DNA of 64,000 nucleotides, taken from an uncultured Candidatus Binatia bacterium (GTDB taxonomy: Bacteria; Desulfobacterota; Binatia; UBA9968; JAJDTQ01). Under the pieces are notes generated by a model, which was given only the letters and a program-made list of their open reading frames with translations, had not been told where the DNA came from and did not search any database. The first letter of the stretch is position 1; the number at the start of each line of letters is the position of its first letter. Location: contig OZ219754.1 of assembly GCA_964291295.2 (NCBI GenBank), forward strand, positions 3,168,001 to 3,232,000, written 5' to 3'. The position numbers and the translations under genes were made by a program. Positions 27,872 to 52,427 of this stretch are shown piece after piece.

Positions 27872-29332
27872 TCATTTTCGGCTCACCGCCTCGAAACGGC
27901 TCAACGCCGAGCGAAGGTTCTCAATGATCTCGGCCACGAGCACATCCGGCTCCGGCAGGTTGTCGAGATCGGCCATGGATGCATCCTTGAGCCAGAACAC
28001 ATCAAGGCTCGCCTTGTCGCGTTGAAGAAGCTCGTCACGCTCGTAGGCGCGCCATCGGCCGTCCGGCGTTTTGTCGCTCCAGGTTGCCTCCCGGACATAG
28101 CGGTTCTCCGGGTTGTAGCAGGCAACGAAATCCTCGAGGTGGGCATAGGTCAGCGGCTTCTGCTTGAGCGTGTGATGCACGTTGGTGCGGTAGTCGTAGT
28201 ACCAGACCTTCGATGTTTGCGGATCGGGGCTCGCCGGACGGTTGTCGAAGAAGATGACATTGGCCTTGACGCCTTGGGCGTAGAAGATGCCCGTCGGCAG
28301 CCGCAGGATGGTGTGCAGATCGGCGGTGTGCAGCAGCTTGCGCCGGATCGTTTCGCCGGCACCGCCCTCGAACAACACATTATCGGGCACCACGACGGCT
28401 GCGCGTCCGGTGGTCTTCAGCAGAGTCCGGATATGCTGGACGAAGTTCAACTGCTTGTTCGATGTTGTCGCCCAGAAATCCTGCCGGTTGTAGGTCAGAT
28501 CATCGGTCTCCTGCTCGCCTTGAGCGTTGGTGAAGCTCATCGAACTCTTCTTGCCGAAAGGCGGGTTGGCAAGAACATAGTCGTACGTCTCCGAAGGCGG
28601 GGAAACCAGCGCGTCAGCCGGCGAGACCGCCGTCTCGCCCGTCATCTCTCCAATTCCGTGCAGCAACATGTTCATCAGGCAGAGCCTGCGCGTGCCCGCC
28701 ACGATCTCGTTGCCGCGGAACGTCGCGTGTTTCAGAAATTCCTTCTGCTCCCTGTCGAGCGCCCGGTTCCGGGGACCGGTGAGGAAGTCGTGGGCAGCAA
28801 GGAAGAACCCGCCGGTTCCGCAGGCCGGATCAGCGATGGTCTTGCCCGGCTCCGGGCGCACGCACGCCACCATCGCTCGGATCAGGGCTCGTGGCGTGAA
28901 GTACTGGCCCGCGCCGGATCTGGTGTCTTCGGCGTTCCGCTCCAGCAGCCCCTCGTAGATGTCTCCCTTCACATCCGCCCCGAGCACCACCCAATCCGTG
29001 CCGTTCACCATGTCGATCAGGCGGAATAACTTGGCTGGATCGGCGATCTTGTTCTGGGCCTTGGAGAAGACTTGGCCCAACATGCCTCGTTGTTCGCCGA
29101 GCTTGCGGAGAAGCGCGACGTAATGCGCTTCGAGGTCCGCGCCACTACGAGTGGTCAGACTCGTCCAGTCATGGCCCTCGGGAATGCCGACATCGCGAGC
29201 GAGTTGCGCAAAAGGGCGAAGTCTCGTGGGACGCTCGAAATGATCCGTCGCAAGCAAGGGATGGAGCAAAGAGGGGCGAACACTGTCAGCGTGACCTCCG
29301 AGATCAACCTGCCAAGCGAGTGGCGGCGTCAA
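27872..29332 (-). pseudogene. hsdM: Type I R-M methyltransferase subunit, apparently 5'-truncated and orphan
   Basis: 'GAGQYFTPR', 'DPACGTGGF', 'ANPPF'; recognisable similarity begins only at about 29197 (RDVGIPEG); no hsdS/hsdR adjacent. Confidence 0.75.
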
Positions 29333-29508
29333 TGGGAAAGCCCCTCAAGCATCAAAAGTCAGGATGCCGTATTTGCGTTATTCGGACCTTCCCTTATGAT
29401 TGAAGGCGCACAGAGTGATGCCGAAACGGCGGCGTTGCCTTTTCGGGTCTTGTTGCCGGGAAACTCAGGTAACTGGAAGCACCCCCGACATGCTGATTCA
29501 GCGGTGCC

Positions 29509-30683
29509 ATGGAGCCGATGACACGCCCACTCTTCGCGTTGTACGTAATATGGCATCCCTTGTATTCGGGGGGCCGCGAGATCGCGGATCGGCTACGTAC
29601 GCACTTTGGCCGCGATCTCCACTCGGCCATCGACGATTGGCGCCGCGTCAGCGTCCTCGAACGCAGCGCACCCGCTCCGGGCGCACGCACGCCCTTGCCG
29701 ATCGACTGGGACGATGCGGAACTCACCGCTGTCGTCGTGCTGACGGAGGCGGCGCTTGTTGATGATCGGGACTGGGGCAGCTACGTGCGTGACACCGCGC
29801 AGGCTGCACAGGAGAGGGGGCTCCCTGCCGGATTCTTCCCGGTGACGATGGAGCGTCCGGGTCTCACATTGGGAGTCGAACAGCAAACGCTGCGTTGGGA
29901 CCACTGGGACGTCCCCGATGCAGACCGGATTCAACGCCTCATGTCGGACCTCACTCACGAGTTCTGCCGCATGCTGCGACATCGCATCGACATGCTCCGG
30001 AGTGTCGGCGGCGGGGAAGCCGCGTTCGGACGTTACCTGGAAAAATCCAGGTCTTCATCAGCCACTCGAAACATGACAAGGGCGGCCCGTCGGTGGGCCG
30101 CGGCATTCGCGACTGGATCCATGCGCACAGCCCGCTCGACAGCTTCTTCGACGTCCACGACATCCCGCCAGGTTTGTCTTTCGAACAGGTTCTGCTGCAC
30201 CAGCTCGACGCCGGGGCGGTCGTGGCGGTGCATACCGATTCGTACTCGTCGCGTGAGTGGTGTCGGCGCGAAGTCATTGAAGCGAAGCGACGTTTGGTGC
30301 CGATGGTCGTCGTCGATTGTGTGCGGGATGTCGACCCGCGTGGAATGGCCTACCTCGGCAATGTGCCGGTCGTTCGCATGGAGCCCGACCGGAGGGACCG
30401 GATGGCCATCGTTGCGGGCTGCCTACTGGACGAAGTCTTCCGCACATGGCTGTGGCTCTGTCGGGTGGGGCACCATCTGGCGGATTCGCCAGGGGTCCTG
30501 TTCACGGCACGGCCCCCCGAACTGATCGCCTTGGCGGCGCTGCCTCCTCATGACGAAGAATCGGTTCCGACAATCGTCTATCCTGAACCCGTTCTGAGCG
30601 CTGACGAAGAACGGCTGTTCCGGGAGATCACGCCGGGAGTCCGTGTGCAGACGTTGACGGACTGGCTGGAGAAACGCCCATGA
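29509..30683 (+). CDS. TIR-domain protein with uncharacterised N-terminal domain; frameshift at A-run 30041-30045
   Basis: 'VFISHSKHD', 'SFFDVHDIPPG', 'YSSREWCRREV' in 29895..30683; N-terminal half in 29509..30525; joins as RYLEK|IQVFISH with one added A. Confidence 0.8.
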
Positions 30684-31519
30684 CCACACACAACGCCGAG
30701 GGATCGACCGCCATCGGTGTCTATGTTTCGGAGAGCCCGGACTTGTGGACCCTGGGGCTTGGCGACGGGCATCTACGTGACGCGATGGCCGAAATCGCCC
30801 TCCAGGTGCTCGCGTCGGGAAGGAGCCTGGCCTACGGTGGAGACTTGCGGCAACACGGATTCACGGAACTTCTGGCCGAGTTGGTGGGGCGTTATCGGAA
30901 TCATCCCCGGCACCGCGAGACCATCGTCGTGACCGACTATCTGGCCTGGCCGGTGCATATCCGGATGACGTCGGACGAGATTGTTGCGTTCTGCGCCGAA
31001 CACGAGCCCGGCGCCCGTCTCGTCTTCCTTGCGCTTGACGGTGTGCGCCTCGCGCGAGAGCAACGGCTGAGGCTGTGCGCGCATGAGCCGGACGAAGGGG
31101 AATGGACGGTAGGACTGACGGCGATGCGAACGGCCATGCGCGGGGATATTCGAGCGCGGATCGTTCTCGGCGGCAGGGTCGAGGGCTACAGGGGAGCGAT
31201 GCCGGGCATCGCCGAAGAGGCCTGCCTTTCTCTGGAAGCAGGGCAGCCCCTGTTCCTCGCAGGCGGATTCGGCGGATGCACGCGCGACATCGCGGAAACG
31301 GTCGGTCTCGCCGCACGCTGGGCCGGTTCGCGTGATGGATGGGCCGGCCGGGAGCGCTTCCTCAAGTACTCGCCGGACGACCTGCACAACGGTCTCTCCC
31401 GCGACGAGAACGCCATCCTGGCCCGCACACCGCATATCCAGGAGGCGGTTACCCTCATCTCGCGGGGTCTGCGCCGCATTCTCGGTGACGGGAATCATGA
31501 TACACAAGGTATTCATTAG
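30680..31519 (+). CDS. SLOG-domain protein (SLOG cluster 2-like)
   Basis: 'LAYGGDLR', 'LTAMR', 'RIVLGG...YRGAMPGIAEEA', 'LFLAGGFGGCT'; ATGA overlap with upstream gene. Confidence 0.75.
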   Translation: MTTHNAEGSTAIGVYVSESPDLWTLGLGDGHLRDAMAEIALQVLASGRSLAYGGDLRQHGFTELLAELVGRYRNHPRHRETIVVTDYLAWPVHIRMTSDEIVAFCAEHEPGARLVFLALDGVRLAREQRLRLCAHEPDEGEWTVGLTAMRTAMRGDIRARIVLGGRVEGYRGAMPGIAEEACLSLEAGQPLFLAGGFGGCTRDIAETVGLAARWAGSRDGWAGRERFLKYSPDDLHNGLSRDENAILARTPHIQEAVTLISRGLRRILGDGNHDTQGIH

Positions 31520-32359: not shown

Positions 32360-33481
32360 CTACTCCCGCGGATAAAGCGCGTCGACCATCCGGCGCTTGT
32401 GGTAGTCCGGGGTGCCGAGATACTGGTAAAGCGTGTGCGCCAGCACGCTGTGCGCCATCAGCGGATGGAGGTAATCGGTGCCCGGTCCGGCGTGCACCAT
32501 GTGCGCGTAGCTGCACGCCTGGTGGTAACCCTCGCTGGCCAGGGCCTTGGACTCGTGGATGCCGGCTTCGGCCGGCATTCCCTGGTCAAGCTTCCACAGG
32601 GTCTCGTAGGTGGCCATGCGCGCCGCGTCCAGATGGACCGACAGTTCCACGCAGTGGTCCTGCACCCGCTGGAAACGGCCGATGAGCTGGCCGAAGGCGC
32701 GGCGTTCGTTGGTATAGCGGACGGTGAAATCGTAGATTTCCTGGCAGGCTCCGACCTTGTACGCGCACAGGATCGGGATGGCCTTCTCCGCGGCCTTGTC
32801 CAGAAGCTCCCAGCCCTGGCCCGCCGCGCCGATCCGATCTGCGGACGGAACCTCGACACCGTCGAAGGCAACCTCGCTCACCGACACCATGTATCCATTG
32901 TGCGGCGTCACCGTGACCCCCGGCGCATCCCGGTCCACCCGCACCACCGCGACCCCGCCATCGCTGGTGCGGGACGCGCACAGGAACGCCGTGGCGCCTT
33001 CGGCGTCGTACACGTGGCGCTTGTTGCCCTGGAGGGTCAGCGTACCGCCGGACTGCGTGCAGGTAGTGGTGACGGTTTCCGGCCCCCAGTGGGCACCGTG
33101 GTCGCCGATGGCCGGAACCACGATGGCGCTGCCGTCGCAAATGCCGGGCAGCAGCGCTTCCTTCTGTGCGTCGGAGCCGCCGTCGTGGATGATCTGGGCG
33201 GCCAGCACGCCGGATGCGAATACCGGCCCGGGCACGGGTGCGCGCCCCAACTCCTCGAACACCACGCCGCAATCCAGATGGGACAACCCCGCACCGCCGT
33301 ACTGCTCGGGCATGAGCATGCCGAGCCAGCCCAGCCCGGCGACCTTGGCGTAGAGATCCGGCAGGAATGTCTCCTTCTTGAGAAACTGCCGGGTCAGCCG
33401 GGTGACGGGTGCCTCCGCCTGAACAAAGTCCGCCGCCACCTTTCTGAACATCTCCTGCTCTTCACCGAGTCGCAAATCCAT
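32360..33481 (-). CDS. Acyl-CoA dehydrogenase family protein (probable non-catalytic subunit of a heteromeric pair)
   Basis: 'LGWLGMLMPEQYGGAG', 'RRAFGQLIGRFQ'. Confidence 0.85.
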   Translation of the reverse strand: MDLRLGEEQEMFRKVAADFVQAEAPVTRLTRQFLKKETFLPDLYAKVAGLGWLGMLMPEQYGGAGLSHLDCGVVFEELGRAPVPGPVFASGVLAAQIIHDGGSDAQKEALLPGICDGSAIVVPAIGDHGAHWGPETVTTTCTQSGGTLTLQGNKRHVYDAEGATAFLCASRTSDGGVAVVRVDRDAPGVTVTPHNGYMVSVSEVAFDGVEVPSADRIGAAGQGWELLDKAAEKAIPILCAYKVGACQEIYDFTVRYTNERRAFGQLIGRFQRVQDHCVELSVHLDAARMATYETLWKLDQGMPAEAGIHESKALASEGYHQACSYAHMVHAGPGTDYLHPLMAHSVLAHTLYQYLGTPDYHKRRMVDALYPRE

Positions 33482-33613
33482 GATCACTCCGAGTCTGCCG
33501 AACCGATTCGTTCCCGTGTTCGGATGTCCAGACGGTTGGCGACAGAACCTGATCCATCACCCCATGGCTCCATCTCCGGCCCCATACAGTATCGGCCTCG
33601 TGCCGTATCGGCC

Positions 33614-34828
33614 CTACACCGTATCCGGCGCCTTCTCCCCGGTCTCGCGGCCGATGCCGGCGCGGCGGGCGAAGATCAGCCGGTCCGTATCCAGGGTGCC
33701 GCCGCCGTGGAGCTGGCCGGGACCGCTCCGCACCACGTACTCGAAGTCCACCACCTCGTGCACGCCGTGGTCCGGGATCAGCGCGTCCGCGCCCATGATC
33801 TTCTGCAGCCGCTCGCCGTTCCGCAGCCTTGCCATGCGCTGGTAGTAGCGGAACTGGGCGCCGCCGTAGGCATGGGGCTGCTTGACGAAACGATGCCAGA
33901 AGATGCGCCGGGCCATGCGGTTCACCGTATTGATCTCCAGGATCATGTCGGCGATGGTGTCGCGCACGCGGAGGTCTTCGATCAGCGGCGTGCCGCCCAC
34001 GTCGTGGTTCCGGCAGTACTCCACCACGCGCTCCACCACCGGGTCGGTGCCCACCCGGCCGTCGCCGCCGTGCTCAAGCTCCAGGTGGGTGTGGGCCACC
34101 TTCCAGCCGTTGTTCTCGCCGCCGATGAGATACTTGGCGGGCACCCGCACGCCGTCGAAGAACACCGCGTTCTTGATGCCCATCATCAGGTGCATGTGCT
34201 GTATGGTGATGCCCGGAAGGTTGGCGGGGATGTGCAGCCAGCTCAGGTTTTCGTGCCGCTTGCCGTCGGGGTCGGTGCACACCAGCGTCCACAGCACGTC
34301 CGGCGGCAGGTGGTGCCCCACCATGACCTTCTGGCCGGTGACGATATAGTCGTCGCCGTCGCGGATGGCCCGGGTCTGGCAGTTGGCCACGTCGCTGCCG
34401 CTCTGGGGCTCGGTCAGCACCTGCCACACCACCACCTCCCCCCGGGTGATGGGCGGCAGCAACTCGTGCTTCTGTTCCTCGGTGCCCCAGTGAAGCGCCA
34501 CCGGCCCCACGATGCGCGCCAGCGTGTAGAACACGTGCGTCAGGTTGAGACCGTAGCGGGCCAACTCCGTCTCCAGCACGAACTGATGGTCGAGGGTAAG
34601 GCCCGCGCCGCCGTACTCCACCGGAAACATCGGGAACAGCCAACCCTTCCGCCCCAGCTTCCGCCCCAGCCCGCGGCGAAAACCGTACTCCTCTTCATTC
34701 TCCCGGGTGGACCATGACGCCGACCAGCGCAGATGCTCCGAGCCTTTCATGTTCTCTTCCAGCCAGGCCCGGACTTCCTTGCGGAACTCGATCATCTCCG
34801 CGGAGTCTTCCTGCAGGTTGAAATCCAT
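33614..34828 (-). CDS. Acyl-CoA dehydrogenase family protein
   Basis: 'LTEPQSGSD', 'YIVTGQK', 'LIGGENNGW', 'HGGGT'. Confidence 0.9.
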   Translation of the reverse strand: MDFNLQEDSAEMIEFRKEVRAWLEENMKGSEHLRWSASWSTRENEEEYGFRRGLGRKLGRKGWLFPMFPVEYGGAGLTLDHQFVLETELARYGLNLTHVFYTLARIVGPVALHWGTEEQKHELLPPITRGEVVVWQVLTEPQSGSDVANCQTRAIRDGDDYIVTGQKVMVGHHLPPDVLWTLVCTDPDGKRHENLSWLHIPANLPGITIQHMHLMMGIKNAVFFDGVRVPAKYLIGGENNGWKVAHTHLELEHGGDGRVGTDPVVERVVEYCRNHDVGGTPLIEDLRVRDTIADMILEINTVNRMARRIFWHRFVKQPHAYGGAQFRYYQRMARLRNGERLQKIMGADALIPDHGVHEVVDFEYVVRSGPGQLHGGGTLDTDRLIFARRAGIGRETGEKAPDTV

Positions 34829-34946
34829 GACCCCTCCTTTGTCGCCCTTCCTGTGTCGCCGGTGCCGTATCGCCAGTCCGCCATTTCCCCAAGTCCGCTG
34901 TCATTCCCGCGAACGGGGTACCGAAGACGGCCGGCGGCGCCCCGTC

Positions 34947-36038
34947 TCAGGCCGTGCGTATCGGTTTCGTCACCGCCAGCGTGTTCCGTCCCGTCCACAT
35001 GGGCAGCAGTACGCAGTGCCGGTGTCTGCCGCCGGTGACCATCACCATGATGTCGTCGGGCCGGGTGGCCAGGTGCACGGTCCCGTCGGGAGTGACGTTG
35101 GGAGACTCCCGCAGGAGTTCCTCGTCGCTCTTGTTCCGCTTGCGCCGGTCCGGGATGCTGGCGAAGGTGATGGTGGAATGCTCCCAGAGATACTCACGGA
35201 CGTCCGCCCGGGAGATGCCGTCCCGCGCCATGATCTCGGCGTCCTCGGTGCACAGGGCCACCAGCGGGGTTCCGCCGCCAAAGCTGCCGACATCCAGGTG
35301 GCTGCCGCCGCGATGCATGGCGATGACCTCGGCCAGCGACGACAGCGCCTCCCGCCCCGTGCTCCCGGCGGTGTGCATGGGGATGAAGCCGTTGATGCCG
35401 CACACGGTCACCGTGCTCTGCCCGGGCTTGTAGCCCCGGCTGACGTGGTAGGGCTCCCAGGGGCTTTTCTCCTCGTTCTCGCCGAAGCAGAAGCTGTACT
35501 TGCCGGGCCAGCCGAAGGTGGCGCGGTCGGTGTCCCCCGGGTAGCCGCCGCCGATGGTGATGAGGATCAATCGGATGGCGCGGCCGATGGTGGCGTTGGC
35601 GCGGTGACCGGGGCCGAACGCACCGGCGTCGCAGTTGATGCCGAGAACGTTGCGGATCGGGCCGTTGACCAGCAGCGCCGGACCCGCGTACCCGGTGGTG
35701 GCCTGGACCCCGTAGAGATTGAAGCGGGGCTCCATGATACCCTCCACCGCGGCCAGGACCACCGGCAGGTACTCCGGCAGGCAGCCCGCCATCACGCAGT
35801 TCACGGCGACCTTCTCCACGGTGGCGGGCGCCCACTTGGGCGGCACCTGCCCGAGGAGATCCCGGGAGTCGCGGGGCGTACCCGCGAGCATGCGTTCCAC
35901 GCGCTCGCGGGTGGGCGGCACGATGGGCAGGCCGTCGCTGAGCCGGTGCTCCAGGAACCAGTTGTTGGCCGCCTCGAGCGAGTCCTCCACCTCGATGACT
36001 TCGGAAACCAGCGTCACCTGTGATGCATCGGTGGTCAT
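34947..36038 (-). CDS. Conserved hypothetical protein, partner of the UGSC selenoprotein
   Basis: 'SDGLPIVPPT', 'ATVEKVAVNCVMAGC', 'RANATIGRA', 'FGENEE..PW' family normally linked to UGSC proteins. Confidence 0.75.
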   Translation of the reverse strand: MTTDASQVTLVSEVIEVEDSLEAANNWFLEHRLSDGLPIVPPTRERVERMLAGTPRDSRDLLGQVPPKWAPATVEKVAVNCVMAGCLPEYLPVVLAAVEGIMEPRFNLYGVQATTGYAGPALLVNGPIRNVLGINCDAGAFGPGHRANATIGRAIRLILITIGGGYPGDTDRATFGWPGKYSFCFGENEEKSPWEPYHVSRGYKPGQSTVTVCGINGFIPMHTAGSTGREALSSLAEVIAMHRGGSHLDVGSFGGGTPLVALCTEDAEIMARDGISRADVREYLWEHSTITFASIPDRRKRNKSDEELLRESPNVTPDGTVHLATRPDDIMVMVTGGRHRHCVLLPMWTGRNTLAVTKPIRTA

Positions 36039-36087
36039 GCGTGAGGGGTCCGTGGAACCAACGGGCGCGGCAGTCCCGGGCGGAGCG

Positions 36088-36672
36088 CTATTCCGCGGCC
36101 CGCGCCTCCGCCTCCGCGGCACCGGCCGCCGCCCGCTCGCCGGCCGCAGTCAGGGTGTCGCGCACCGGACCGATGGCGACCCGGGCATCCTCGGCGTGCT
36201 CGCCGGCCCGCGCGCCACCGCTCGGATGATGCGGCACCGGCACCAGCGGCAGCTTCGGCATGCCGAAGAACGTCGCCTCCTTCCGGCCCAGCTCCATGAA
36301 GAGGGTCTGGCACAGGGTCACCGTAGGCGTACCGCGCTTCTGTATCTCGATGGCGTCGTGGACACTCCACGACGTGCACGACCCTCAGGCCCCGAGGCCG
36401 GTGATGACCGCGTCACACCGGCGCTGCATCTCGTCGATCAGCTCCTCCGGCGCCCCCTGCATGTGGCTCGGCTTCTTCCGCAACAGCACTTCGGCCGCAT
36501 CCGTCCGTTCCTTGATGAGCCGCGCCAGCTCCTGGAACATCGGGCTCGAGTTGGCCTGGCCGTTGTCGATGATCCCCACCACCTTCCCGGCCAGCACATC
36601 CAGCCCCGGCACCGGCGGATGGTTCTCCAGCAGAACGTCCGCCCTCGGATCGAGCATCAAGAGCTTTCCCAT
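36088..36672 (-). CDS. UGSC-family selenoprotein (in-frame TGA = Sec at 36385-36387)
   Basis: ORFs 36385..36822 and 36088..36321 are in the same frame; read-through gives ...VITGLGA-U-GSCTSWSVHDAIEIQKRGTPTVT... Confidence 0.85.
36354..36374 (-). promoter_or_regulatory. Candidate bacterial SECIS hairpin
   Basis: CGUCGUGGA-GUG-UCCACGACG, perfect 9 bp stem starting 11 nt after the UGA, G in the apical loop. Confidence 0.7.
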
Positions 36673-36858: not shown

Positions 36859-38028
36859 TCACCGCCACAGCCGCTCGCTCGCCAGGCGCGCTCCTTCCGC
36901 CATGGCCTGGAGCTTGGCCCAGACGATGGTGGGGTGGATTTCAGGGACCTCCAGGGCCTGGGTGCCGAAGCCGCAGTCGCTGCCGGCGATGACGTTCTCG
37001 CGCCCCACCAGGCCGGCAAAGCGTTCGAGCCGCTGGGCCACGAGTTCCGGGTGCTCCACCAGCACCGACGACTGGGTGATGACGCCGGGAATGAGGAGCT
37101 TGCCCTCGGGCAGTCTGACGTCCTCCCAGATGCGCCACTCGTGCTCGTGGCGCGGGTTGGAGGCCTCGAAGGAGAAAGCGCCGGCGCGAATCTTGAGCAC
37201 GATGTCGATGTAGTCCTTCATCTGCATGTCGTGGACACGCGGCCCCATGTTGATGCCGTAGCAGGTGTGGTAGCGCACGCGGTCCTCCGGGATGTCCCGC
37301 AGGGCGTGGTTGATGGCTTCGATCTGGCCTTCGGCCCAGGCCCGGCACTGCGCCACGCTCAGATCCGGGTTCTTGACGTAGTAGTCGATGAGCAGGGGGT
37401 CGTCGATCTGAAGCAGAAATCCGGCATCGACGATGGCCTGGTATTCGACCCGCAGCGCGTCCGCGATGGCGAACAGGAACTCCTCGCCGCTCCGGTAATA
37501 GTCGTTCTCCTGGTTGCCCGCCACGTCGCAGGGGGAGATGGCGGGCACGAAGGCTTCGACCGCTCCGGCCGCGGCGGTCGCGGCCTTGAGGTTTTCCAGG
37601 TCCCTGGCCAGCCGTTCCCGAGCCTTGTAGGCGATGGGGCCGGTGCAGACCATCTGCATGTTGCTCGGATTGGGCTCGCCGGCCGGGGCCGCGCCGGGGG
37701 CGCCGTAGAACTCCGGGAAGGCCCGGGATTCCCGGGAGTCGGCCCAGGGCGGGACCCGCACCCGGCCGGTGGGCGTGAGACCGTCGAGGCGCTGGTGCGC
37801 GTAGACCGCGAAGCCGCGCTTGCTGAATTCGCCGTCGTCCACGATGTCGACCCCCAGCTCCCGCTGCCGGCGCACGATGTCGTGGACCGCGCGCCGGAGC
37901 CTGGCCTCGTAGTCCCCAGGCTCCACCGCCCGGCCCTGGTTCTCCGCAAGCATCACGTCGATGAGCTCCCGCGGGCGCGGCAGGCTGCCGGTATGGGTGA
38001 CAAGAATGTGTTCGGTGCTGTGCAACAT
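36859..38028 (-). CDS. Cobalamin-independent methionine synthase II (MetE C-terminal-like) family protein
   Basis: 'THTGSLPRP', 'LQIDDP', 'HTCYG', 'SDCGF'. Confidence 0.9.
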   Translation of the reverse strand: MLHSTEHILVTHTGSLPRPRELIDVMLAENQGRAVEPGDYEARLRRAVHDIVRRQRELGVDIVDDGEFSKRGFAVYAHQRLDGLTPTGRVRVPPWADSRESRAFPEFYGAPGAAPAGEPNPSNMQMVCTGPIAYKARERLARDLENLKAATAAAGAVEAFVPAISPCDVAGNQENDYYRSGEEFLFAIADALRVEYQAIVDAGFLLQIDDPLLIDYYVKNPDLSVAQCRAWAEGQIEAINHALRDIPEDRVRYHTCYGINMGPRVHDMQMKDYIDIVLKIRAGAFSFEASNPRHEHEWRIWEDVRLPEGKLLIPGVITQSSVLVEHPELVAQRLERFAGLVGRENVIAGSDCGFGTQALEVPEIHPTIVWAKLQAMAEGARLASERLWR

Positions 38029-38110
38029 GATGATTTTCCGTGAGCAGCCGGGCACGGGCGCGGGCTTCGACAGCCGCATTCGCCGCATCCACGGTCCGGC
38101 GCGTCGGTCT

Positions 38111-38527
38111 TCAATCCGCGTTCGCGGGTTGGAACTTGTACAGGGTGCGATCCCCGGTGATGTCCTCGAACACCACCTCCACGGGCATGTCGCAGCGCAG
38201 TTCCCCGGGCTCGCAACCCACCACGTTGGTGACCAGGCGCGGACCCTCGTCCAGCTCCACCACCACCAGGGCATAGGGCAAATCGTCCGCGAACCCCTTG
38301 TGATAAGCCCTGTGATAGACCCCGAAGGAGTAGATTTTCCCCCGGCCGCTCACCCGGGTCCAGGTCCAGTCCGTGCTCCAGCACCCGGGACAGGTGACGG
38401 TGGGAGGGAACCAGTGGTTCGAGCAGGCGTCGCAGCGGGGCACCCGCAACTCGTGGCGCCGGCAGCCTTCCCAGAAGGGCTCCGACTCCACCGACGGCGG
38501 CGGCAGCGGCTTGAGGTACGCGCTCAT
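38111..38527 (-). CDS. DUF35 Zn-ribbon/OB-fold protein
   Basis: 'CDAC...CPGC', 'GRGKIYSF', 'VVELDEGPR'. Confidence 0.9.
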   Translation of the reverse strand: MSAYLKPLPPPSVESEPFWEGCRRHELRVPRCDACSNHWFPPTVTCPGCWSTDWTWTRVSGRGKIYSFGVYHRAYHKGFADDLPYALVVVELDEGPRLVTNVVGCEPGELRCDMPVEVVFEDITGDRTLYKFQPANAD

Positions 38528-39696
38528 CCCGCCTCCCTTCCCAGGATCAGCGCCGACTGGCAGACCGTGTTGCCGCCGTGGCCGCTGACCAGGGCGATGT
38601 CGCAGTCCTTCACCTGCCGGTGGGGGGCGTGTGCGCGGCGCACCTGGCGGACGCCTTCCAGCACCTGGAGCATGCCCTCGATGTGCCCCTCGGACAGTTG
38701 CCCGCCGGAGGTGTTGGTGGGCAGCGCACCGCCGGCCTCCAGCGCTCCCGACGCGGCGAATGGCCCGCCCTCGCCCTTGGCGCAGAAGCCGTAGTCCTCA
38801 AGTTGCAGCAGCACCATGTGGGTGAAGCAGTCGTAGAGCTGAGCCGTGTCCACGTCCTCGGGGCCGATGCCGGCCATGCGGTAGGCCGCCTCCCCGGCCT
38901 CCCGAGCTCCCGTCGTGATCATGTTGTCGCCCGCATACCATCCGCTCAGGCGGTTGCCGAAGCCAAAGCCCAGCACGTACGCCGGCGGCTGCCGGAGATT
39001 CCGGGCACGGTCCGCGCCAGTCACCACCACCGCGCCGGCGCCGTCGATGAAAACGCTGCAATCGTACAGGCACAGCGGATCCACGATGAGCCGGGCGCCA
39101 AGGTACGCCTCCAGCGTCAGCGGCTTTTGCATGAACGCGTGAGGGTTCCTGCGGGCGTGGTTGCGGAACGCCACCGCGATGGCGCCCAACTGCGCCTTGG
39201 TGGTGCCGAAGCGCTCCATGTGGCGCCGCGCCGCGACGGCGTAGTTCACCGGGGCACCGAACTGGCCGAACTCCGAACCGAACTCCGAGTAAGTGCGCGG
39301 GCGCGACGCCACCGCCTGCCTGGCCTCGGCGTCGCGGTGGGTGCGGGACCAGGTATCGCGGCCGTAGCCTGCCACTACGGTGTTGCAGACGCCGGCCTCG
39401 ATGGCCATGCACGCCATCGCCACCGCCATGGTCTGGCTCGCACCGCCGTTGGCGGTGGAAGTGCTGTAGGTGACGTCGAGACCCAGCGCCTCGCCCACCC
39501 GCTGGTGGTGGCAGTAGACGTCATCCGGCCCGCGGGTGATGAGGCCGTCCACGTCCTCCTTTTTCAGGCCGGCGTCCTCGATGGCATTCTTCGCCGCCAC
39601 CGCGAAGAGCCCGATGGGGCCCATCTCCGGCACCTTCCCCAAGGGACTCTGTCCCACGCCGACGATGGCATACTTGCCGCTCAGGTTCGTGCTCAT
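38524..39696 (-). CDS. Thiolase-like (SCPx/Ltp2-type) protein
   Basis: 'LYDCF', 'NTSGGQLSEGH'; coupled to DUF35 gene. Confidence 0.9.
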   Translation of the reverse strand: MSTNLSGKYAIVGVGQSPLGKVPEMGPIGLFAVAAKNAIEDAGLKKEDVDGLITRGPDDVYCHHQRVGEALGLDVTYSTSTANGGASQTMAVAMACMAIEAGVCNTVVAGYGRDTWSRTHRDAEARQAVASRPRTYSEFGSEFGQFGAPVNYAVAARRHMERFGTTKAQLGAIAVAFRNHARRNPHAFMQKPLTLEAYLGARLIVDPLCLYDCSVFIDGAGAVVVTGADRARNLRQPPAYVLGFGFGNRLSGWYAGDNMITTGAREAGEAAYRMAGIGPEDVDTAQLYDCFTHMVLLQLEDYGFCAKGEGGPFAASGALEAGGALPTNTSGGQLSEGHIEGMLQVLEGVRQVRRAHAPHRQVKDCDIALVSGHGGNTVCQSALILGREAG

Positions 39697-39776
39697 GTTT
39701 TCTCCCGTGTGTTCCTCTCGTGTGCCCGCTCTCGCCGCCCGGATGGGGCCGCGCTCGCCGGAACGCGGAGGCCGCC

Positions 39777-40577
39777 CTACCGGGCCTTCCAGACGGGCGG
39801 GCGCTTCTCCGCGAAGGCGCGGGAGCCTTCCTTCTGGTCCTCGGTGGTGGAGAGCGCCAGCCCCAGGTCGCTCTCAAGCTTCAGACCCTGCTCCAGGGGG
39901 AGCTGGATTCCCTTGGTAAGGGCCTCCTTGATGGCGATCACCGACAACGGCGCGCCCAGACATATCCTGGCGGCCATCTCCCGGGCCACGTCCATGTAGC
40001 GATCCACCGGGGCCACCTTGTTCACGAGGCCGATGCGAAGCGCCTCCCGGGCGTCCACGGCCTCGCCGGTGAGACACAGCTCCAGCGCCCGGGCCACGCC
40101 GATGAGCCGCGGCAGGCGCTGGGTGCCACCGCCACCCCCCAGCCGCCCGCGCCGGACCTCGAACATGCCGAGCCTGGCGTCCTCCGCGGCCACGCGAAGG
40201 TCACAGGCCAGCGCCAGTTCCAGGCCGCCGCCCACCGCGTAGCCCCGGATCGCCGCGATGGTGGGCTTTTCCATGGTGGCCACCGCCAGATTCTGGCCAC
40301 GGGTGCCGGAGCGGTTGCGCGTCCGGCGCTTCTCGAAGAAGGAGGCATCGTCCATCTCCCGCGCCCGCTCCTTGAGATCGATCCCGGTGGAGAAGGCCCG
40401 CTCCCCCGCGCCGGTGATGATGCACACCCACACGTCCGGATCGGCGGACACCCGACCGCAGGCATCGTGCAGCTCGTCCCGTGCCTTGTAGCTGATGGCG
40501 TTCATCACCTCCGGGCGGTTGAGGGTGAGGGTGGCCACATGGTCCGTCACTTCGTAGAGGATGTGCTCATATGTCAT
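39777..40577 (-). CDS. Enoyl-CoA hydratase/isomerase
   Basis: '[10 protein letters not shown]', 'AFSTGIDL', '[11 protein letters not shown]', '[10 protein letters not shown]'. Confidence 0.92.
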
Positions 40578-41059
40578 CGAAGCTCCTGAATCGTAATAGG
40601 CGCGGCCGCCGCCCAGCCCGCCTGTTCCCGTCCGGGAAGCCTTGGGCGACCACCGTGCCCGAAGGGACTCCGGCGGACACCGACTCCCCCGGCATCCCCT
40701 TCGGGGATGCGCCGGCAACGGCCACCGGCCTTGGCCGCGGCAACGCCTGAAGGTTCGCTCTCCGACTCATTGTCCTTTGAGAATCGGTGATTTAGCGGTG
40801 ACCCGGTTCGAGCCGCGCGGAACGGGGTATTTCCGGAGACCCGAGGGTTGTTGGCCCGCAAATCCGCAACTGACCGGTTTTCATGGAGAATTCCGTGCGC
40901 ATAAATTGTGCAATCCGCTGAATCCCGGTTGAATAGTGTCTTTTTCCACGCGCTCCGGCGATATACACAGGGTTTTCCACAGCCCCTGTTACCACGTTGA
41001 CACACCCTCGTAACATTGACACCCGCGCGAACGCTCTCCTGTCCGTCCCTGCCCGACGG

Positions 41060-41538: not shown

Positions 41539-42093
41539 TCACCCGGTGGGAAGGACCGGCATGCCCTCGGGGGCGCTGATGTCGAACGCATTGAGGGAAC
41601 AGGCAAGACCCACGTACCCGCCGATGATGCCGGTGAGCTCCGCCAGCCGGTGGTCCCCGAGGCGCGCCCGCAGTGCCCGGAAGGTCGCCTCGGTGATGCG
41701 GTGCGGAGGCCGCAACAGCTCCTGCACATAGCGGACGAACGGCGCTTCGTCGTCGTTGAGGCCCTCGGGCGCCCGGCCCTCGCCAATGGCCGCCACCACC
41801 TCCTCCCGCACCCCGGCGTCGAGGGCGTGGCCCGAGTGAGCGGCCCACTCGTACACGCAGTCCATCTCCCGGGCCACCGTGCAGATCACCAGTTCCTTTT
41901 CCTTGAGGGGAAAGTCCGAGGCGAACAGCGAATAGCCCACCAGGTGCGCCGTGCGCGCGGCCAAGTCCGGACAGTGGAGCAGATTGGCGTAGGGTGCGCC
42001 GATGCGCTTGCGGCTGGCCATGATGGCGTCATAGTGCCGCCGCTGCTCCTCCGGTACGTCCTCTCTTTTGGTGACCTCCGGTATTCGGGGCAT
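41539..42093 (-). CDS. Carboxymuconolactone decarboxylase/AhpD-like protein
   Basis: 'GAPYANLLHCP', 'KELVICTVARE..CVYEWAAH', 'ELTGIIGGY'. Confidence 0.8.
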   Translation of the reverse strand: MPRIPEVTKREDVPEEQRRHYDAIMASRKRIGAPYANLLHCPDLAARTAHLVGYSLFASDFPLKEKELVICTVAREMDCVYEWAAHSGHALDAGVREEVVAAIGEGRAPEGLNDDEAPFVRYVQELLRPPHRITEATFRALRARLGDHRLAELTGIIGGYVGLACSLNAFDISAPEGMPVLPTG

Positions 42094-42104
42094 CTCTTCC
42101 CTTC

Positions 42105-43580
42105 TCACAGCTCCGGCGTGGCGGCCGGCGGCCGCCGGTGGTGCGTGGCCTGCTCATAGGCGTAGGCGAACCGGATCATGCGGCCGTCGTCGTAGGGCCG
42201 TCCGAGAAAGGTAATCCCGGCCGGAAGACCCTGCCGGGTGAAGCCCCCGGGCACCACCACCGACGAGACGAAGACCAGAAAGGTGTTGATGTGGGGGACC
42301 CCCCTCATGTTGACCCATGGCGGCTTGACGCCTTCGGCGATGAGAGTGGGCTGGTGCTCCACCGACTTGTGCACGATGGCGTCCAGCCGATGGTCGGCCA
42401 TGACCTTCAGCAGATTACCCATGAGCCGCTCGCGCGCCAGCAGATACGCGTAGTGCCGGTCGGCGTCGAGGGGCGCCGTCCAGCGGTTCCGGGCGTTGTG
42501 ATGGACCTTGGCGAAGTCCGGCGACGCCATGGCCGCCTGGCGGGACTCGAACGGCCGCCGGGCACTCCTGCCGTAGTACCGCATGAAGGCCTCGTCGGCA
42601 CTCTTGGGGTTCCACGAGCGCCTGGCCAGCAACTCGTTGAGTTCCGGAATCACCACCGGATCCACCACCTCGGCGCCAGCGGCCCGGAGGTCCGCCACCG
42701 CCTTGTCGAACACCTCGGTGACCTGCCTGAAATCGTCGGTGTCGGGCTCCGCCATATACCCCATGGGCTCCCGCAGGATCCCGAGACGCGCGCCGGCGAG
42801 GCCGCCGGCGTCCAGGAAGTCGGTGTAGCTTGGGGGTATGTGGCCGACGCCATAGGCGGTGGCCGGATCATCGGGATCATAGCCCACCATGCCGTCCAAC
42901 AGCCGCGCCATGTCCCCCACCGTGCGGGCCATGGGGCCCAGCGAGCCGGTCAGGTCGGGCCAGCCGTCGTACACCCCGCCCCGGCTCACCAGCCCGGGCG
43001 TGGGGCGCATGCCGGCCACGCAGTTCCAGGTGGAGGGGCGGCGGATGGAGGCGTAGCCTTCCTGGCCCACCGCCAAGGTGGCGAAGTTCGCGGCCACGGC
43101 CGCGCCGGAACCGCCGGAGGAACCGCCCACGGTCCGCTCTATGTCGTAGGGGTTGCGGCTGGACCCGAACAGCGAGCCGTGGGTATCGCCCCCGCCCAGC
43201 TCCCCCAAGGTCGCCTTCGCCAGGATGATGGCCCCGGCCTGCCGGAGCCGTTCCACCACGAAGCAGTCGCGGTCGGGGTAGTAGTCCCGGAACAGCACGC
43301 TGCCCAGGGTGGTGGGCATCCCCCTGGCATCGCCCTGGTCCTTGAACACGATGGGAATGCCGTGGAGCGGGCCGGCCGGCGGCCCGGCCCCGAGCCGGTC
43401 GGCCTCCTCCAGGGCGCCAGGATTGACCGTGATGATGCAGTTGAGGGCAGGGCCGTTCCTGTCATAGGCCTCGATCCGGTCGAGGTAGGCCTGCACCAGA
43501 TCGCGCGGGGTCCATTGCCCCGACCGGTAGGCCTCGTGGACGGCCTCAATGGTGGTTTCCACTACGCGGACGGTGCTCAT
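42105..43580 (-). CDS. Amidase signature family enzyme
   Basis: 'LHGIPIVFKD', 'GGSSGGSGAAVAA', 'SIRRPS'. Confidence 0.9.
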   Translation of the reverse strand: MSTVRVVETTIEAVHEAYRSGQWTPRDLVQAYLDRIEAYDRNGPALNCIITVNPGALEEADRLGAGPPAGPLHGIPIVFKDQGDARGMPTTLGSVLFRDYYPDRDCFVVERLRQAGAIILAKATLGELGGGDTHGSLFGSSRNPYDIERTVGGSSGGSGAAVAANFATLAVGQEGYASIRRPSTWNCVAGMRPTPGLVSRGGVYDGWPDLTGSLGPMARTVGDMARLLDGMVGYDPDDPATAYGVGHIPPSYTDFLDAGGLAGARLGILREPMGYMAEPDTDDFRQVTEVFDKAVADLRAAGAEVVDPVVIPELNELLARRSWNPKSADEAFMRYYGRSARRPFESRQAAMASPDFAKVHHNARNRWTAPLDADRHYAYLLARERLMGNLLKVMADHRLDAIVHKSVEHQPTLIAEGVKPPWVNMRGVPHINTFLVFVSSVVVPGGFTRQGLPAGITFLGRPYDDGRMIRFAYAYEQATHHRRPPAATPEL

Positions 43581-43592
43581 GGGTGGCTCCTG

Positions 43593-43990
43593 GCGGTGTG
43601 TCTCATGAATGGCCTTGCATTTCGAGATTTTGAGGAAGATGGATTGACGGAAGTGGTCCGGACGAAAGGCTTGGGATTGGCATTGTGGCAAACCAGGGAG
43701 TGCTTGATGGCCGCAATCCGTTCCGGGACGCTGCGAAAGACACTGCGGCGCAGACGTTGGTGAGTCAGCTTTGCGAACCCACTTTCGACGAGATTGAGCC
43801 AGGAGGTACGGGTGGGCGTGAAATGGAGTCGGAATCGCGGGTGACCAGCCAGCCAAAGGCGCAGCGCTTCATGCTTGTGAGTTCCGTAGTTGTCCAGCAT
43901 GATGTGCCGAGTCCGGTCGCGCGGGAAGGCACGGTGGAGGCGCCGCAGGAAGTTCAGGAACTCCTGATGCCGATGGCACCCGTGGCACGG
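43593..43990 (-). pseudogene. IS630-family transposase C-terminal fragment
   Basis: 'HRHQEFL', 'LDNYGTHKH', 'RFRLHFTPTRTSWLNLVE..F'. Confidence 0.85.
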
Positions 43991-44062: not shown

Positions 44063-45052
44063 TCAACGCCCGGGCTTGGCGGCCAGCACCTCGTCGAGGC
44101 TCGCCGCCACCAGCACGGCCTCCGCCCAAGCCTCCAGTTCGGAGGCCGACGCACGGCGAACCCGCTCGCCGACCGCATCCGGCACATCACCGAAACGCAA
44201 CGCCAGTTGACGAAGAAGAAGTTCCGCCAAGGCCTGTATCCGGCCTCGTTCGATTCCCTCTGCTCTTCCCTGTTCGATTCCCTTCTCGATTCCCTGTTCG
44301 ATCCAGGCTTGCGCGACTGTGCCCATCAGCGCCTCCCAACGGTCCGGCTTTGTCCGGCGCAGCGACGCCTCCAGCAATGGCGGCGTCAGGTTCATGCACT
44401 CGGCCATGTAACGCACAATATGACGCTCGAACGCGCTCCCCGCAACCGGCCCGCCCGTCATCTGGTCCAGAAGATCCGTCGGTATGTCCTCGGCATATAC
44501 CACCTTGAGCGCCAGAAGCCCGGCCCGCACTTCGGGCGAGACCGACAACCGCCCTGGCGCAATCTCGCCAAGGTCATGCAGCACATAGGCGAACTCCCTG
44601 ACGAAAGGCTCCAACTCCCCGGGCGCGTCGATCATCCCCGGCACCGAGCGCGCCGCGGTCCAGCGGCCCCGACCGTGGTAGAAAACCAGCGGAATGATCG
44701 CCGGCAGCCGGTCCCCGCCAGCGCCATTCTCGACCTCGCGGCGCCAGATGTTGACCATGTATTTCAGGAGTTGGAGCGGCGTGTCCGCGTCGACGCGGCT
44801 CTTGTGTTCGAGCAGCACATAGAGCCGCGCATCGTGGCCGCTCCTCAGTCTCACCCGGAACAGCGCATCGCACTGGGTCCGCGCGGCGTCCTCGTCCACG
44901 AAGTGGCCCTCCACCGCCTCGGGCGGGGCCTCGGGGTCGAGGAGAGCGGCGACTTCTTGCGGCAGGTATTGCGCCAGCAGCGCGGCGGCGCGGGCCGGCT
45001 CGGAGACCAGTGCCCGGAACAGCGCATCGTGGGGCGTCGTCGGAAGGCTCAC
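44063..45052 (-). CDS. Rpn/YhgA-like (Transposase_31) PD-(D/E)XK nuclease
   Basis: 'PHDALFR', 'CDALFRV...LLEHKS', 'PAIIPLVFYHG', EQG/EKG repeats, DUF4351-like tail. Confidence 0.9.
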   Translation of the reverse strand: MSLPTTPHDALFRALVSEPARAAALLAQYLPQEVAALLDPEAPPEAVEGHFVDEDAARTQCDALFRVRLRSGHDARLYVLLEHKSRVDADTPLQLLKYMVNIWRREVENGAGGDRLPAIIPLVFYHGRGRWTAARSVPGMIDAPGELEPFVREFAYVLHDLGEIAPGRLSVSPEVRAGLLALKVVYAEDIPTDLLDQMTGGPVAGSAFERHIVRYMAECMNLTPPLLEASLRRTKPDRWEALMGTVAQAWIEQGIEKGIEQGRAEGIERGRIQALAELLLRQLALRFGDVPDAVGERVRRASASELEAWAEAVLVAASLDEVLAAKPGR

Positions 45053-45233
45053 CGGGCGGGTTCCCCGGCGTCTTTCGCAGCGTCCCGAAACGGATTGCCG
45101 CCATCAAGTACTCCCTGGCTTGACACAATGCCAATCCCAAGCCTTTCGTCTGGAACACATCCGTCCACTCCATCCTGCGCAAAACCATCCTGCGCGAAAT
45201 CGCGGACTGCAAGGCCATTCATGAGACACACCG

Positions 45234-46061
45234 CTAGAAAAAGGCCAGGGTACGCATCTCGATGCTCTCCCGGGCCGGGGCGTCGGACGGCGTGCCGGGG
45301 TCGTCGAAGGCGCAGTGCAGGGTCCAGCGCGCGCGCCCGTCGCGCTCGGACTCGAAGGTCTTGAACACCACGGCCTCGTGGCGCTCCATGTGCGGGAAGT
45401 AGTACCAGCGATGCCTGGGGTTGAAGGTGTAGTGCAGCGTCTCGCCGCGGCGGTCCGGGTAGATGCGCGCCGTGGGGACAGCCCCTTCCATGTCCGTGCT
45501 GCGGGCGTCGGCGATGGCCAGCGGCTCACGTATCACCGGGCGGTTGATGGGCCGCCAGGTCTGCACCACGGCGAACCGTCCCTTGAGCAGTTCCTCGGCC
45601 TCGTCCGGCAGGAGGTCGCGGACCCGCTGGGGTCCCGACCAGTCCGTGTAGTCGTTGTGGGCGCTGCGTACCGGCCCGCCCACCTGCTTCGCCTCGCGCG
45701 TGGCCTCGTCGCCGGAACGAAGCGTATGGTCGAACACCACCACGCGTCTGGCCCCGGCCGTCTTCCTGACGAGTTCCTCGGTCTCCTTGTAGTAGACCGC
45801 ACGCACCTCTTCCTCGTCATAGAAATCCGTCATCCGGGTGTCGTGGCGCACCAGCACGAACCCCTCCCGCTCCAGCGACAGCGTGTCCGCCACGAGCCGG
45901 GCGTTCCGGATGGTCATCGTGTGACCCTCGTACCTGCCCCGGCGCCTGCGGTCCGCCTCCTTCTGGCTCAGGCCGCCGTAGCTCGCCGGGGTCTCGCCGC
46001 CCTTGATGAGGTAGTGGAGCACGCCTTCGATGGACTCCGGCGCGGTTTGAGGTCTTGCCAT
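45234..46061 (-). CDS. CmcJ/NvfI-family oxidoreductase (paralog of 3974..4825)
   Basis: 'LSLEREGF', 'VFDHTLR', 'AHNDYT', 'RESIEMR'. Confidence 0.8.
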   Translation of the reverse strand: MARPQTAPESIEGVLHYLIKGGETPASYGGLSQKEADRRRRGRYEGHTMTIRNARLVADTLSLEREGFVLVRHDTRMTDFYDEEEVRAVYYKETEELVRKTAGARRVVVFDHTLRSGDEATREAKQVGGPVRSAHNDYTDWSGPQRVRDLLPDEAEELLKGRFAVVQTWRPINRPVIREPLAIADARSTDMEGAVPTARIYPDRRGETLHYTFNPRHRWYYFPHMERHEAVVFKTFESERDGRARWTLHCAFDDPGTPSDAPARESIEMRTLAFF

Positions 46062-46288
46062 GGCACCCTCCGCGGGACCGATTGTTCTGCTGCGGGGTCG
46101 CGTGGCGGGGCCGCGAACCCCGGGGGCGCCATGATATGCATGCCGCCGTCGAATGCCCTGATGCCGTTGCCGGCCATCCGCCTGCCCGGTTCCGCGCCAT
46201 CCTCCGCAGGCCGTGTCGTCCCGCCCGCACCCCGCCATGAAAGGAAGGCCGCCCGCGCGAAGGCCGCCCGTTCCGGGCAACCTTCGCG

Positions 46289-52279: not shown

Positions 52280-52427
52280 GCACCTCCTTTTCGAATACCT
52301 CCTCTATACCCTGAACGAGGGGCGCAGGGTATACGGCTTCATGAGACGCGCGGGATCAGGTAGACTGGCCGGGAATCCTTGGACATCCCGGAATACCTGG
52401 AAATCCCGGTTCGACCCCTTCGACTTC

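Follow-up and report, generated by a model that had tools for sequence, protein, structure and literature searches.

A probable UGSC-family selenoprotein and its DGLP partner in an uncultured Candidatus Binatia bacterium

Why would two open reading frames (ORFs) that lie in the same frame of the same strand, and together spell out one conserved protein, be separated by a single TGA codon? The question is raised by a stretch of 64,000 nucleotides (hereafter, the window; positions 3,168,001 to 3,232,000 of the forward strand of contig OZ219754.1, assembly GCA_964291295.2) from an uncultured Candidatus Binatia bacterium. An initial annotation, made from the letters of the window, proposed that the two ORFs are one hidden selenoprotein gene of the UGSC family, in which the UGA is read as selenocysteine (Sec), and that its product forms a two-subunit redox enzyme with the protein encoded by the next gene, the DGLP protein. 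We consider it likely that the window gene is a UGSC-family selenoprotein, read through at the UGA and functioning as a pair with the DGLP protein; what the pair does is a matter for more tentative proposals, which we set out below together with the explanations that compete with them.

The reading frame and its family

The UGSC gene occupies 36088..36672 on the minus strand. It starts at an ATG (36672-36670), with a GGAGG, the ribosome-binding site suggested by the sequence, 5 nt ahead of it, ends at a TAG (36090-36088) and encodes 194 amino acids (aa). The sole interruption of this frame is a TGA at 36385..36387 (minus), the proposed Sec codon; read-through gives the peptide ...CDAVITGLGA-U-GSC-TSWSVHD..., in which the predicted Sec is residue U96 of a U-G-S-C99 motif. 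On this point the initial annotation, which described two same-frame ORFs split only by a TGA and joined as GLGA-U-GSC, is exact, coordinates included. The coding signal continues past the TGA, because the GC content of third codon positions (GC3) is similarly high on both sides: 0.85 in the whole upstream ORF and 0.88 in the whole downstream ORF, and 0.92 and 0.92 in the 50 codons on either side. A six-frame scan of all 64 kb finds no other TGA with at least 50 open codons and a GC3 of at least 0.8 on both sides. Does TGA simply have another meaning in this organism? Genome-wide reassignment of TGA (codes 4 and 25) is ruled out: TGA closes 20 of the 30 family-supported ORFs in the window, including that of the DGLP protein (34949-34947), so the recoding must be local and not due to a variant genetic code. 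A TGA placed within a continuous, homologous reading frame is more than chance.

To which family does the read-through protein belong? It matches the Pfam family PF24696 (UGSC) with E = 5.2e-44 over residues 6-175, aligned to profile positions 2-171 of 172, and scores 150.8 bits against a cut-off of 25. It also matches NCBIfam NF041046, “UGSC family (seleno)protein” (E = 2.6e-32, 111.9 bits), and both models are matched by all 35 aligned family members. Besides this full-length match, the window protein shares with the family the U-G-S-C motif, the alternation of Sec and Cys in one column, a length of ~175-195 aa and a C-terminal motif of PHP type that is conserved; the Sec forms from Global Ocean Sampling (GOS) in the supplement of PMC2398784 have a matching architecture. 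The window protein differs in several respects: its C-terminal tail is rich in Ala and Glu, it has HHPSGG in place of the HPLGG of most relatives, and it is a high-GC soil-type relative, whereas those printed forms are marine.

Is the interruption private to this genome? A search of 5.8 billion clustered proteins returns 39 relatives of the read-through protein. Twenty-two of them end exactly at ...GLGA, as expected from a gene caller stopping at the same TGA, and four others, full-length and 65-68% identical, carry a Trp at the U96 position, as they would under a translation table in which TGA stands for Trp. These 26 relatives are 55-68% identical to the window protein, and the interruption that they have in common is therefore an inherited feature of a subclade and not a private nonsense mutation. 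The remaining relatives have Cys at the U96 position (eight, all at most 38% identical) or are unclear or apparently frameshifted at the site (five). A profile search of 1.84 billion representatives reaches much further, to 3981 relatives at E <=0.001; among the best 150 of these, the column of U96 holds Cys in 145, and the next three columns hold Gly in 146, Ser in 121 and, at C99, Cys in 139.

The initial annotation had expected Cys or Sec at the aligned position of homologs, and Cys is what the aligned column holds, so the objection that homologs might lack both falls away. An in-frame UGA that aligns with the Cys of homologs and is followed by conserved coding sequence is the pattern by which bacterial selenoproteins are recognized, and both elements are found here. 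The full-length match to PF24696, the Cys of the homologs and the stop or Trp shared by the subclade thus all argue, at the level of sequence, for the selenoprotein part of the initial proposal. Its prediction that standard gene callers would split the gene is borne out by the database, in which most relatives end at ...GLGA. “Hidden” in the sense of unknown is the part that does not stand, since the family is already curated in Pfam and NCBIfam.

It is also well represented in print. The UGSC family dates from 2007-2008; it is called a selenoprotein of unknown function in PMC1976440 (2007), and GOS data hold 255 Sec forms, the fifth-highest count among the families, and 21 Cys forms (PMC2398784, 2008, Table 2), which puts UGSC among the most abundant selenoprotein families of aquatic metagenomes. 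What is known of its function? The full-text literature searched, in the portions available, assigns none, and the papers on selenoproteins that include UGSC are, by their titles and abstracts, computational surveys or reviews; a 2026 review (PMC13188914) lists UGSC among the selenoproteins whose functions “remain largely uncharacterized”. The statement in the initial annotation that the family has no established biochemical function therefore agrees with all three sources, as far as the consulted passages of each go. Structure databases add little at the level of sequence: neither the UGSC nor the DGLP protein has a significant sequence match in the PDB by single-protein or profile search, and the ESM Atlas, queried with P0029, a natural relative of the Cys form, yielded no usable match for the UGSC family.

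A partner encoded next door

The gene that follows, separate and 49 nt away, occupies 34947..36038 on the minus strand (P0002) and encodes the 363-aa DGLP protein, ending at the TGA at 34949-34947. It carries the conserved motifs DGLPxxPPT (35-43), AVMAGC (in which C86 is invariant), NLYGVQATT (107-115) and RANATIGR, and an alignment of 44 sequences contains 37 invariant columns. The DGLP protein itself matches no Pfam or NCBIfam model and no NCBIfam family recurs among the 44 members; the source names shown among the best 120 listed relatives are all “hypothetical”, and the ESM Atlas offers automatic cluster names only, with no Pfam assignment. With 6535 relatives among the 8000 candidates scored, DGLP is a very large family that lacks any Pfam or NCBIfam model.

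The partner is not new to the UGSC literature. The stretch AVNxVMAGCxPEYxP...NGP is what Zhang and Gladyshev (2008) called “Unknown_1”, a domain drawn fused to UGSC in Fig. S1A of PMC2398784: the printed AVNGVMAGCRPEYMP... and AINAVMAGCKPEYLP...NGP match AVNCVMAGCLPEYLP...NGP of the window partner, and the link between UGSC and this partner was accordingly printed in 2008 as a fusion. Fused proteins found in the present searches align to both window proteins; in the window, by contrast, the two domains are two genes. The consulted parts of that paper report the fusion and one conserved Cys, and mention no universal adjacency, modeled interface or thioredoxin-reductase fusions.

How general is the partnership? 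We fetched 43 loci by way of the UGSC protein, from Acidimicrobiia, Frankia, Conexibacter, Mycolicibacter, Myxococcota and others. A DGLP homolog is present in all 43, and it adjoins the UGSC gene on the same strand in every one, once a weaker copy in locus L030 is counted. The order of the genes is not fixed (DGLP comes first in 16 loci, UGSC in 27), and of 42 heuristic ORF pairs, 22 have the stop of one gene overlapping the start of the other. Seven loci (L002, L009, L012, L013, L025, L032 and L037) hold a second complete pair, and it follows that the genes duplicate as a pair; three further loci (L007, L028 and L030) hold an extra DGLP gene. The two genes are also joined covalently: among the best 150 UGSC representatives, 6 combine UGSC and DGLP in a single chain of 485-560 aa, and 12 of the 47 longer DGLP relatives carry PF24696. 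The paralogous second pairs are found no more than 10 kb from the first and are often divergently transcribed.

Do the two proteins touch? We modeled the complex for a pair that occurs naturally in the Cys form, that of Conexibacter locus L007, using our own alignments and three controls. The pair scores 0.76 (runs of 0.79, 0.76 and 0.74) and the best control 0.00; the pass mark is one that 116 of 157 solved complexes and 2 of 215 mismatched pairs attain, counts that apply only roughly here because the alignments were our own. The runs share at least 90% of their contacts, with a predicted local distance difference test score (pLDDT) of at least 92 for the partner. On the UGSC side, the interface comprises residues 90-92 (C-G-S of the CGSC motif), 94-96, 99 and the N-terminal residues 1-10; on the DGLP side, it comprises residues 35-38, 73-77, 101-110 and 151-166. 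Carried over by alignment (offset +6), it would set U96-S98 of the window protein against P41-R44, V79-M83, N107-G116 and L157-D172 of its partner, stretches that coincide with the most conserved loops of the DGLP protein (PPT, AVNxVM and NLYGVQATT). The model supports mutual binding of UGSC and DGLP, so that in the window, too, the UGSC protein would bind the product of the next gene. Because the U/C-G-S motif and the UGSC N-terminus pack on the most conserved loops of the partner, the active site is probably composite, shared by both subunits.

The AlphaFold2 model of the UGSC protein (pLDDT 89.3; predicted template modeling score, pTM, 0.82) consists of five parallel strand-helix units, β-α-β-α-β-α-β-α-β-α, and its best fold matches in the PDB are azoreductase, WrbA and lumazine synthase, which are flavodoxin-like, with template modeling (TM) scores of 0.4-0.48. 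The likeness is one of fold only: the three-layer α/β topology is the same, whereas sequence identity to AzoR, WrbA and lumazine synthase is only 10-17%. The mixed sheet of thioredoxin (β-α-β-α-β-β-α) is not what the model displays, and no thioredoxin stands among the matches listed. In the model, Sec96 sits at the N-terminus of the helix 97-112, directly after the strand 88-94, and Cys99 is one turn away, a geometry that suits a redox-active selenolthiol cycling to a selenenylsulfide.

Could the DGLP protein be merely a client, or a co-regulated neighbor, of the UGSC protein and not a subunit of the same enzyme? The UxxC motif would be at home in a stand-alone reductase, PMC2398784 guessed at a thioredoxin-like fold and a redox role for the UGSC protein, and the automatic names that the ESM Atlas gives to DGLP relatives include “thiol-disulfide oxidoreductase” and “thioredoxin (fragment)”. 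The guess as to the fold is not borne out, since the five strands of the model form a parallel, flavodoxin-like sheet, and a client or neighbor would not be expected to adjoin in all 43 loci, to co-duplicate and to fuse covalently with its reductase, nor to bury the redox motif of the latter against its own invariant loops, as the modeled interface has it. A reductase and its client would, moreover, still be a two-component redox system, differing mainly in which subunit does the chemistry. We regard this alternative as unlikely. UGSC and DGLP very probably form a two-subunit redox enzyme, as the initial annotation had supposed: the two genes adjoin in every one of the loci examined, they occur as natural fusions, and the modeled complex clears its controls, all of which argue for it.

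Possible chemistry and electron supply

If the two proteins form one enzyme, which of them binds the substrate, and where do the electrons come from? The clue is provided by other fusions of DGLP. Of the 47 longer DGLP relatives, 22 (among P0317-P0348) are fused to Pyr_redox_2 of the low-Mr (low relative molecular mass) thioredoxin-reductase type, with the DGLP domain N-terminal in 19 and C-terminal in three; each of these has exactly one CxxC (CADC, CAVC, CATC or CGTC). Another 11 of the 47 are tandem DGLP-DGLP proteins. From the thioredoxin-reductase-like fusions we infer that DGLP may be the catalytic, substrate-binding subunit of a reductase to which a dithiol or a selenolthiol donates the electrons. 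The UGSC protein would be its dedicated redox or nucleophilic subunit and would be the source of that dithiol or selenolthiol wherever the two genes are split or UGSC is fused to DGLP, whereas in the forms fused to Pyr_redox_2 the CxxC of the flavoprotein would supply the dithiol. UGSC itself might be re-reduced by a cellular disulfide reductase system. By analogy only, with the selenoprotein B of glycine, sarcosine, betaine and D-proline reductases, the selenol could attack the substrate and Cys99 then resolve the adduct. The reductase chemistry and the class of substrate are tentative assignments, in which we place rather less than even trust.

Is this a glycine reductase in miniature? The analogy has some footing in sequence. 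Among the 35 UGSC members, weak matches recur to TIGR01917 (12 members, best E = 6.1e-5), GrdF (nine), TIGR01918 (eight), GrdH (seven) and PrdB (three), and in the window protein the residues around the Sec (79-129) align to profile positions 330-379 of 431. With GrdB, GrdF, GrdH and PrdB, UGSC would also share a catalytic Sec in UxxC and an obligate second subunit. The differences are as clear: the window protein has ~190 aa against their ~430, its partner is unrelated to any curated family, and its genomic context is acyl-coenzyme A (acyl-CoA) catabolism, while theirs is Stickland fermentation. The window protein scores 14.9 bits against a cut-off of 602.2 for TIGR01917 and 12.3 against 65.45 for TIGR01918, and it does not belong to the selenoprotein B families proper (TIGR01917/01918/04483, ~430 aa). 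With scores so far below the cut-offs, and an aligned region seen for the window protein only, homology to selenoprotein B is no more than suggested.

A stronger version would have UGSC and DGLP be a true enzyme of the glycine/proline-reductase type, in which UGSC is a minimal selenoprotein B, DGLP is the counterpart of the pyruvoyl-bearing GrdE/PrdA, and the reaction is reductive cleavage of a C-N (or other C-X) bond beside a carbonyl. The weak matches that repeatedly fall on the Sec region, an obligate second subunit in which one Cys (C86) is invariant and the link to thioredoxin-reductase-like modules would all be explained; glycine reductase also draws on the thioredoxin system. What this version leaves unexplained is why every score falls so far short of its family cut-off, why DGLP matches none of the Pfam and NCBIfam models, those of the glycine-reductase subunits included, why Pfam scans of window ORFs reveal no GrdA-like gene and why DGLP bears no sign of self-cleavage or of a pyruvoyl group. 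We rate it as rather improbable.

Here the structure of DGLP might have been expected to help. Its AlphaFold2 model is a confident one (pLDDT 90.2, pTM 0.92), and two assignments were considered and dropped, a Toblerone-fold cyclic amide hydrolase and a class I fumarate hydratase: by Foldseek, such matches have E values of 2e-3 or worse and TM scores of 0.18-0.27. What this means for the overall argument is taken up in the next section.

Decoding of the UGA, counter-evidence and genomic setting

How would the ribosome tell this UGA from a stop? UGA-96 would be decoded as Sec by SelB and tRNA-Sec, with a hairpin 11 nt past the UGA acting as its SECIS (Sec insertion sequence) element. In the terms of bSECISearch, a SECIS element is a stem-loop shortly 3' of the UGA with an apical loop that carries G/U. 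The candidate lies at 36354..36374 (minus), within the codons for T-S-W-S-V-H-D-A: the 5' arm CGUCGUGGA (36374-36366) and the 3' arm UCCACGACG (36362-36354) form nine perfect pairs around a GUG loop (36365-36363), the first paired base is the 11th nt past the UGA, the loop occupies nt 20-22 after it, and the 21-mer folds at -13.5 kcal/mol. The initial annotation's description of an adjacent SECIS-like hairpin is thus accurate as to stem, loop and position; its diagnostic value had been set too high, as shuffled sequences and Cys-form genes reveal.

These and several other results weigh against the reading of the pair as a Sec-dependent enzyme. The 48 nt that begin with the UGA fold at -17.0 kcal/mol, compared with -13.6 +/- 2.6 for dinucleotide shuffles (z = -1.3), and 19 of 200 shuffles fold at least as stably. 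When the same 21-nt register is folded in 41 Cys-encoding homologs from genome contigs, three of them (L030, L033 and L034) turn out to carry the identical -13.5 kcal/mol hairpin and three more (L003, L004 and L014) reach -12.6 kcal/mol, the hairpins of these six having 8-9 bp; altogether, six of the 41 are at or below -12 and 12 at or below -9 kcal/mol. Why should genes that encode Cys keep such a hairpin? The peptide T-S-W-S-V-H-D written in GC-rich codons (ACG UCG UGG AGY GUC CAC GAC) is nearly self-complementary, and the hairpin is therefore largely a by-product of the conserved peptide and those codons. Rfam contributes no match, either for the whole window at the gathering threshold or for 36200-36500 at E up to 10. 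In sum, the place and shape of the hairpin fit a SECIS element and its stability does not exceed chance, so that on its own it is weak evidence. It may nevertheless be that TSWSVHD predisposes the family to switching between Cys and Sec.

The remaining counterpoints concern the decoding machinery, the comparison set and the partner. ARAGORN finds no tRNA gene in the 64-kb window, hence no tRNA-Sec there, and Pfam scans of 48 further window ORFs (19 + 29) reveal no SelA, SelB or SelD domain; the lack of Sec genes in a 64-kb piece is uninformative as to the organism. The 111.9 bits of the match to NF041046 fall short of 125, the curated equivalog cut-off. The 43 loci are all Cys forms from few lineages, and the pattern with which the genome contigs were scanned, [CW]GSCTSWSV, is blind to TGA forms. 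The modeled L007 pair is only 35-42% identical to the window proteins. For the DGLP model, Foldseek returns nothing from the PDB at E <=0.001 (the best E is 2e-3, with TM scores of 0.18-0.27), and with no significant solved relative there is no structure-based substrate or cofactor site for DGLP. One neighbor in the window, the MetE-like gene described below, is not conserved with the pair (0 of 43 loci), and the neighborhood survey relied on a crude ORF caller that missed the DGLP gene itself in all but 29 of the 44 sources.

Might the UGA be read through without selenium, by near-cognate Trp or Cys insertion or by a low-efficiency leak, or might the main product even be a truncated protein of 95 aa? 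The window, in which no Sec machinery is seen, and the hairpin, which is shared with Cys forms and so is not specific to Sec, would both allow it. Leaky stops, however, are not conserved at the exact position of a catalytic Cys across a subclade, as this UGA is, which is a signature of Sec; the family is a recognized selenoprotein family, and a 95-aa fragment would lose the C-terminal half that is conserved throughout it. Selenium-free read-through is quite improbable on these grounds. Least probable is a pseudogene or assembly error, in which one substitution or a mistake in sequencing turned a TGC or TGT Cys codon into TGA, leaving the gene dead or truncated: Cys-form homologs do use TGC or TGT at this position, one substitution away from TGA, the window is a single sequence without read support, and PMC1976440 concedes that an in-frame TGA in a single sequence may come from a sequencing error, but the same interruption recurs in 26 independent database relatives (22 ending at ...GLGA and four with Trp), GC3 of 0.92 and family homology are intact beyond the TGA, and Sec forms far outnumber Cys forms in the GOS counts of the family. 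A selenoprotein that works as a pair with DGLP remains the reading that we prefer.

In what company does the pair travel? In the window, it is part of a co-directional block on the minus strand that runs from a hydratase through a thiolase, a MetE-like gene, UGSC and DGLP to two acyl-CoA dehydrogenases. The enoyl-CoA hydratase gene (39777-40766, minus) and the SCP-x-type thiolase-like gene (38524-39873, minus) recur in related loci. The acyl-CoA dehydrogenase genes (33614-34900 and 32360-33556, both minus) are most like those for PimC/PimD, the large and small subunits of pimeloyl-CoA dehydrogenase. The MetE-like gene (36859..38349, minus), which encodes a protein resembling cobalamin-independent methionine synthase, matches Pfam PF01717 (2.3e-11) and, below the cut-off, NCBIfam PRK06233 over residues 111-485; with no homolog in any of the 43 related loci, it is ruled out as a third subunit. 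Recurrent neighbors elsewhere include acyl-CoA dehydrogenases, thiolase-like proteins with ChsH2-type OB-fold partners and enoyl-CoA hydratases, as well as AMP-forming ligases, family III CoA-transferases, Amidohydro_2 proteins, P450 and nitroreductase; their frequencies are lower bounds because the ORF caller is crude. This neighborhood suggests that the substrate is a CoA-thioester or a related catabolic intermediate.

Other features of the window deserve a brief record. A carboxymuconolactone-decarboxylase/AhpD-like gene (41539-42153, minus) has no in-frame TGA; AhpD-like families are also known as selenoprotein families. A YhgA-like transposase gene (44066-45103) lies inside the catabolic cluster, and next to it, at 45063-45234, the plus strand repeats a short N-terminal stretch of the amidase gene (42108-43868), residues 41-92 at 60-74% identity, which looks like the scar of a rearrangement. 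A gene for a CmcJ/NvfI-family oxidoreductase follows at 45237-46382 (minus). Farther on, the plus-strand gene at 52218-54770 encodes an 851-aa class Ic Glu/Gln-tRNA synthetase whose C-terminal domain is of the GatB/YqeY type, an architecture known from Deinococcus GlnRS, and type III-B CRISPR-Cas genes extend over 56547-63519 (minus; RAMP 56547-57845, Cas10/Cmr2 60167-62260 and a second RAMP 62212-63519). On the other side of the pair, a stretch of lower GC content (~6600-31500, 0.61-0.62 in places) holds mobile and defense genes: a restriction-modification enzyme of Type ISP (6679-8439), an integrase (9861-10925), a DDE transposase (19185-20225), a UvrD-type helicase of 1096 aa that includes a topoisomerase zinc ribbon (20941-24228), an N6 DNA methylase (27875-29344) and a SLOG cluster2 protein (30605-31516).

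What does one more UGSC gene teach us? It is a further member of a curated family and adds nothing on the existence of that family. What is added beyond the literature searched is (i) the universal partnership with DGLP and the co-duplication of the pair; (ii) a redox motif that models place at the subunit interface, in a fold predicted to be flavodoxin-like and not thioredoxin-like; (iii) the alternative fusions of DGLP to thioredoxin-reductase modules; and (iv) a hairpin encoded by a conserved peptide. A broader proposal, speculative and in our view doubtful as it stands, is that UGSC and DGLP represent a widespread, uncharacterized class of selenol/thiol-dependent reductase. UGSC would then be a minimal, distant cousin of the B selenoproteins of glycine and proline reductases, a small flavodoxin-like subunit with a Sec/Cys-x-x-Cys motif, from which a catalytic subunit with no significant solved relative receives its nucleophile as well as its electrons; the substrates would be CoA-linked intermediates of catabolism in bacteria such as Frankia, Conexibacter, mycobacteria and Acidimicrobiia; in some lineages, the place of UGSC would be taken by a fused thioredoxin-reductase module; and the TSWSVHD peptide would be a built-in “pre-SECIS” that could explain the ready switching between Cys and Sec. 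Taken together, the split gene, the uncurated partner family, the acyl-CoA context and the clue to electron supply make the function of this pair experimentally approachable.

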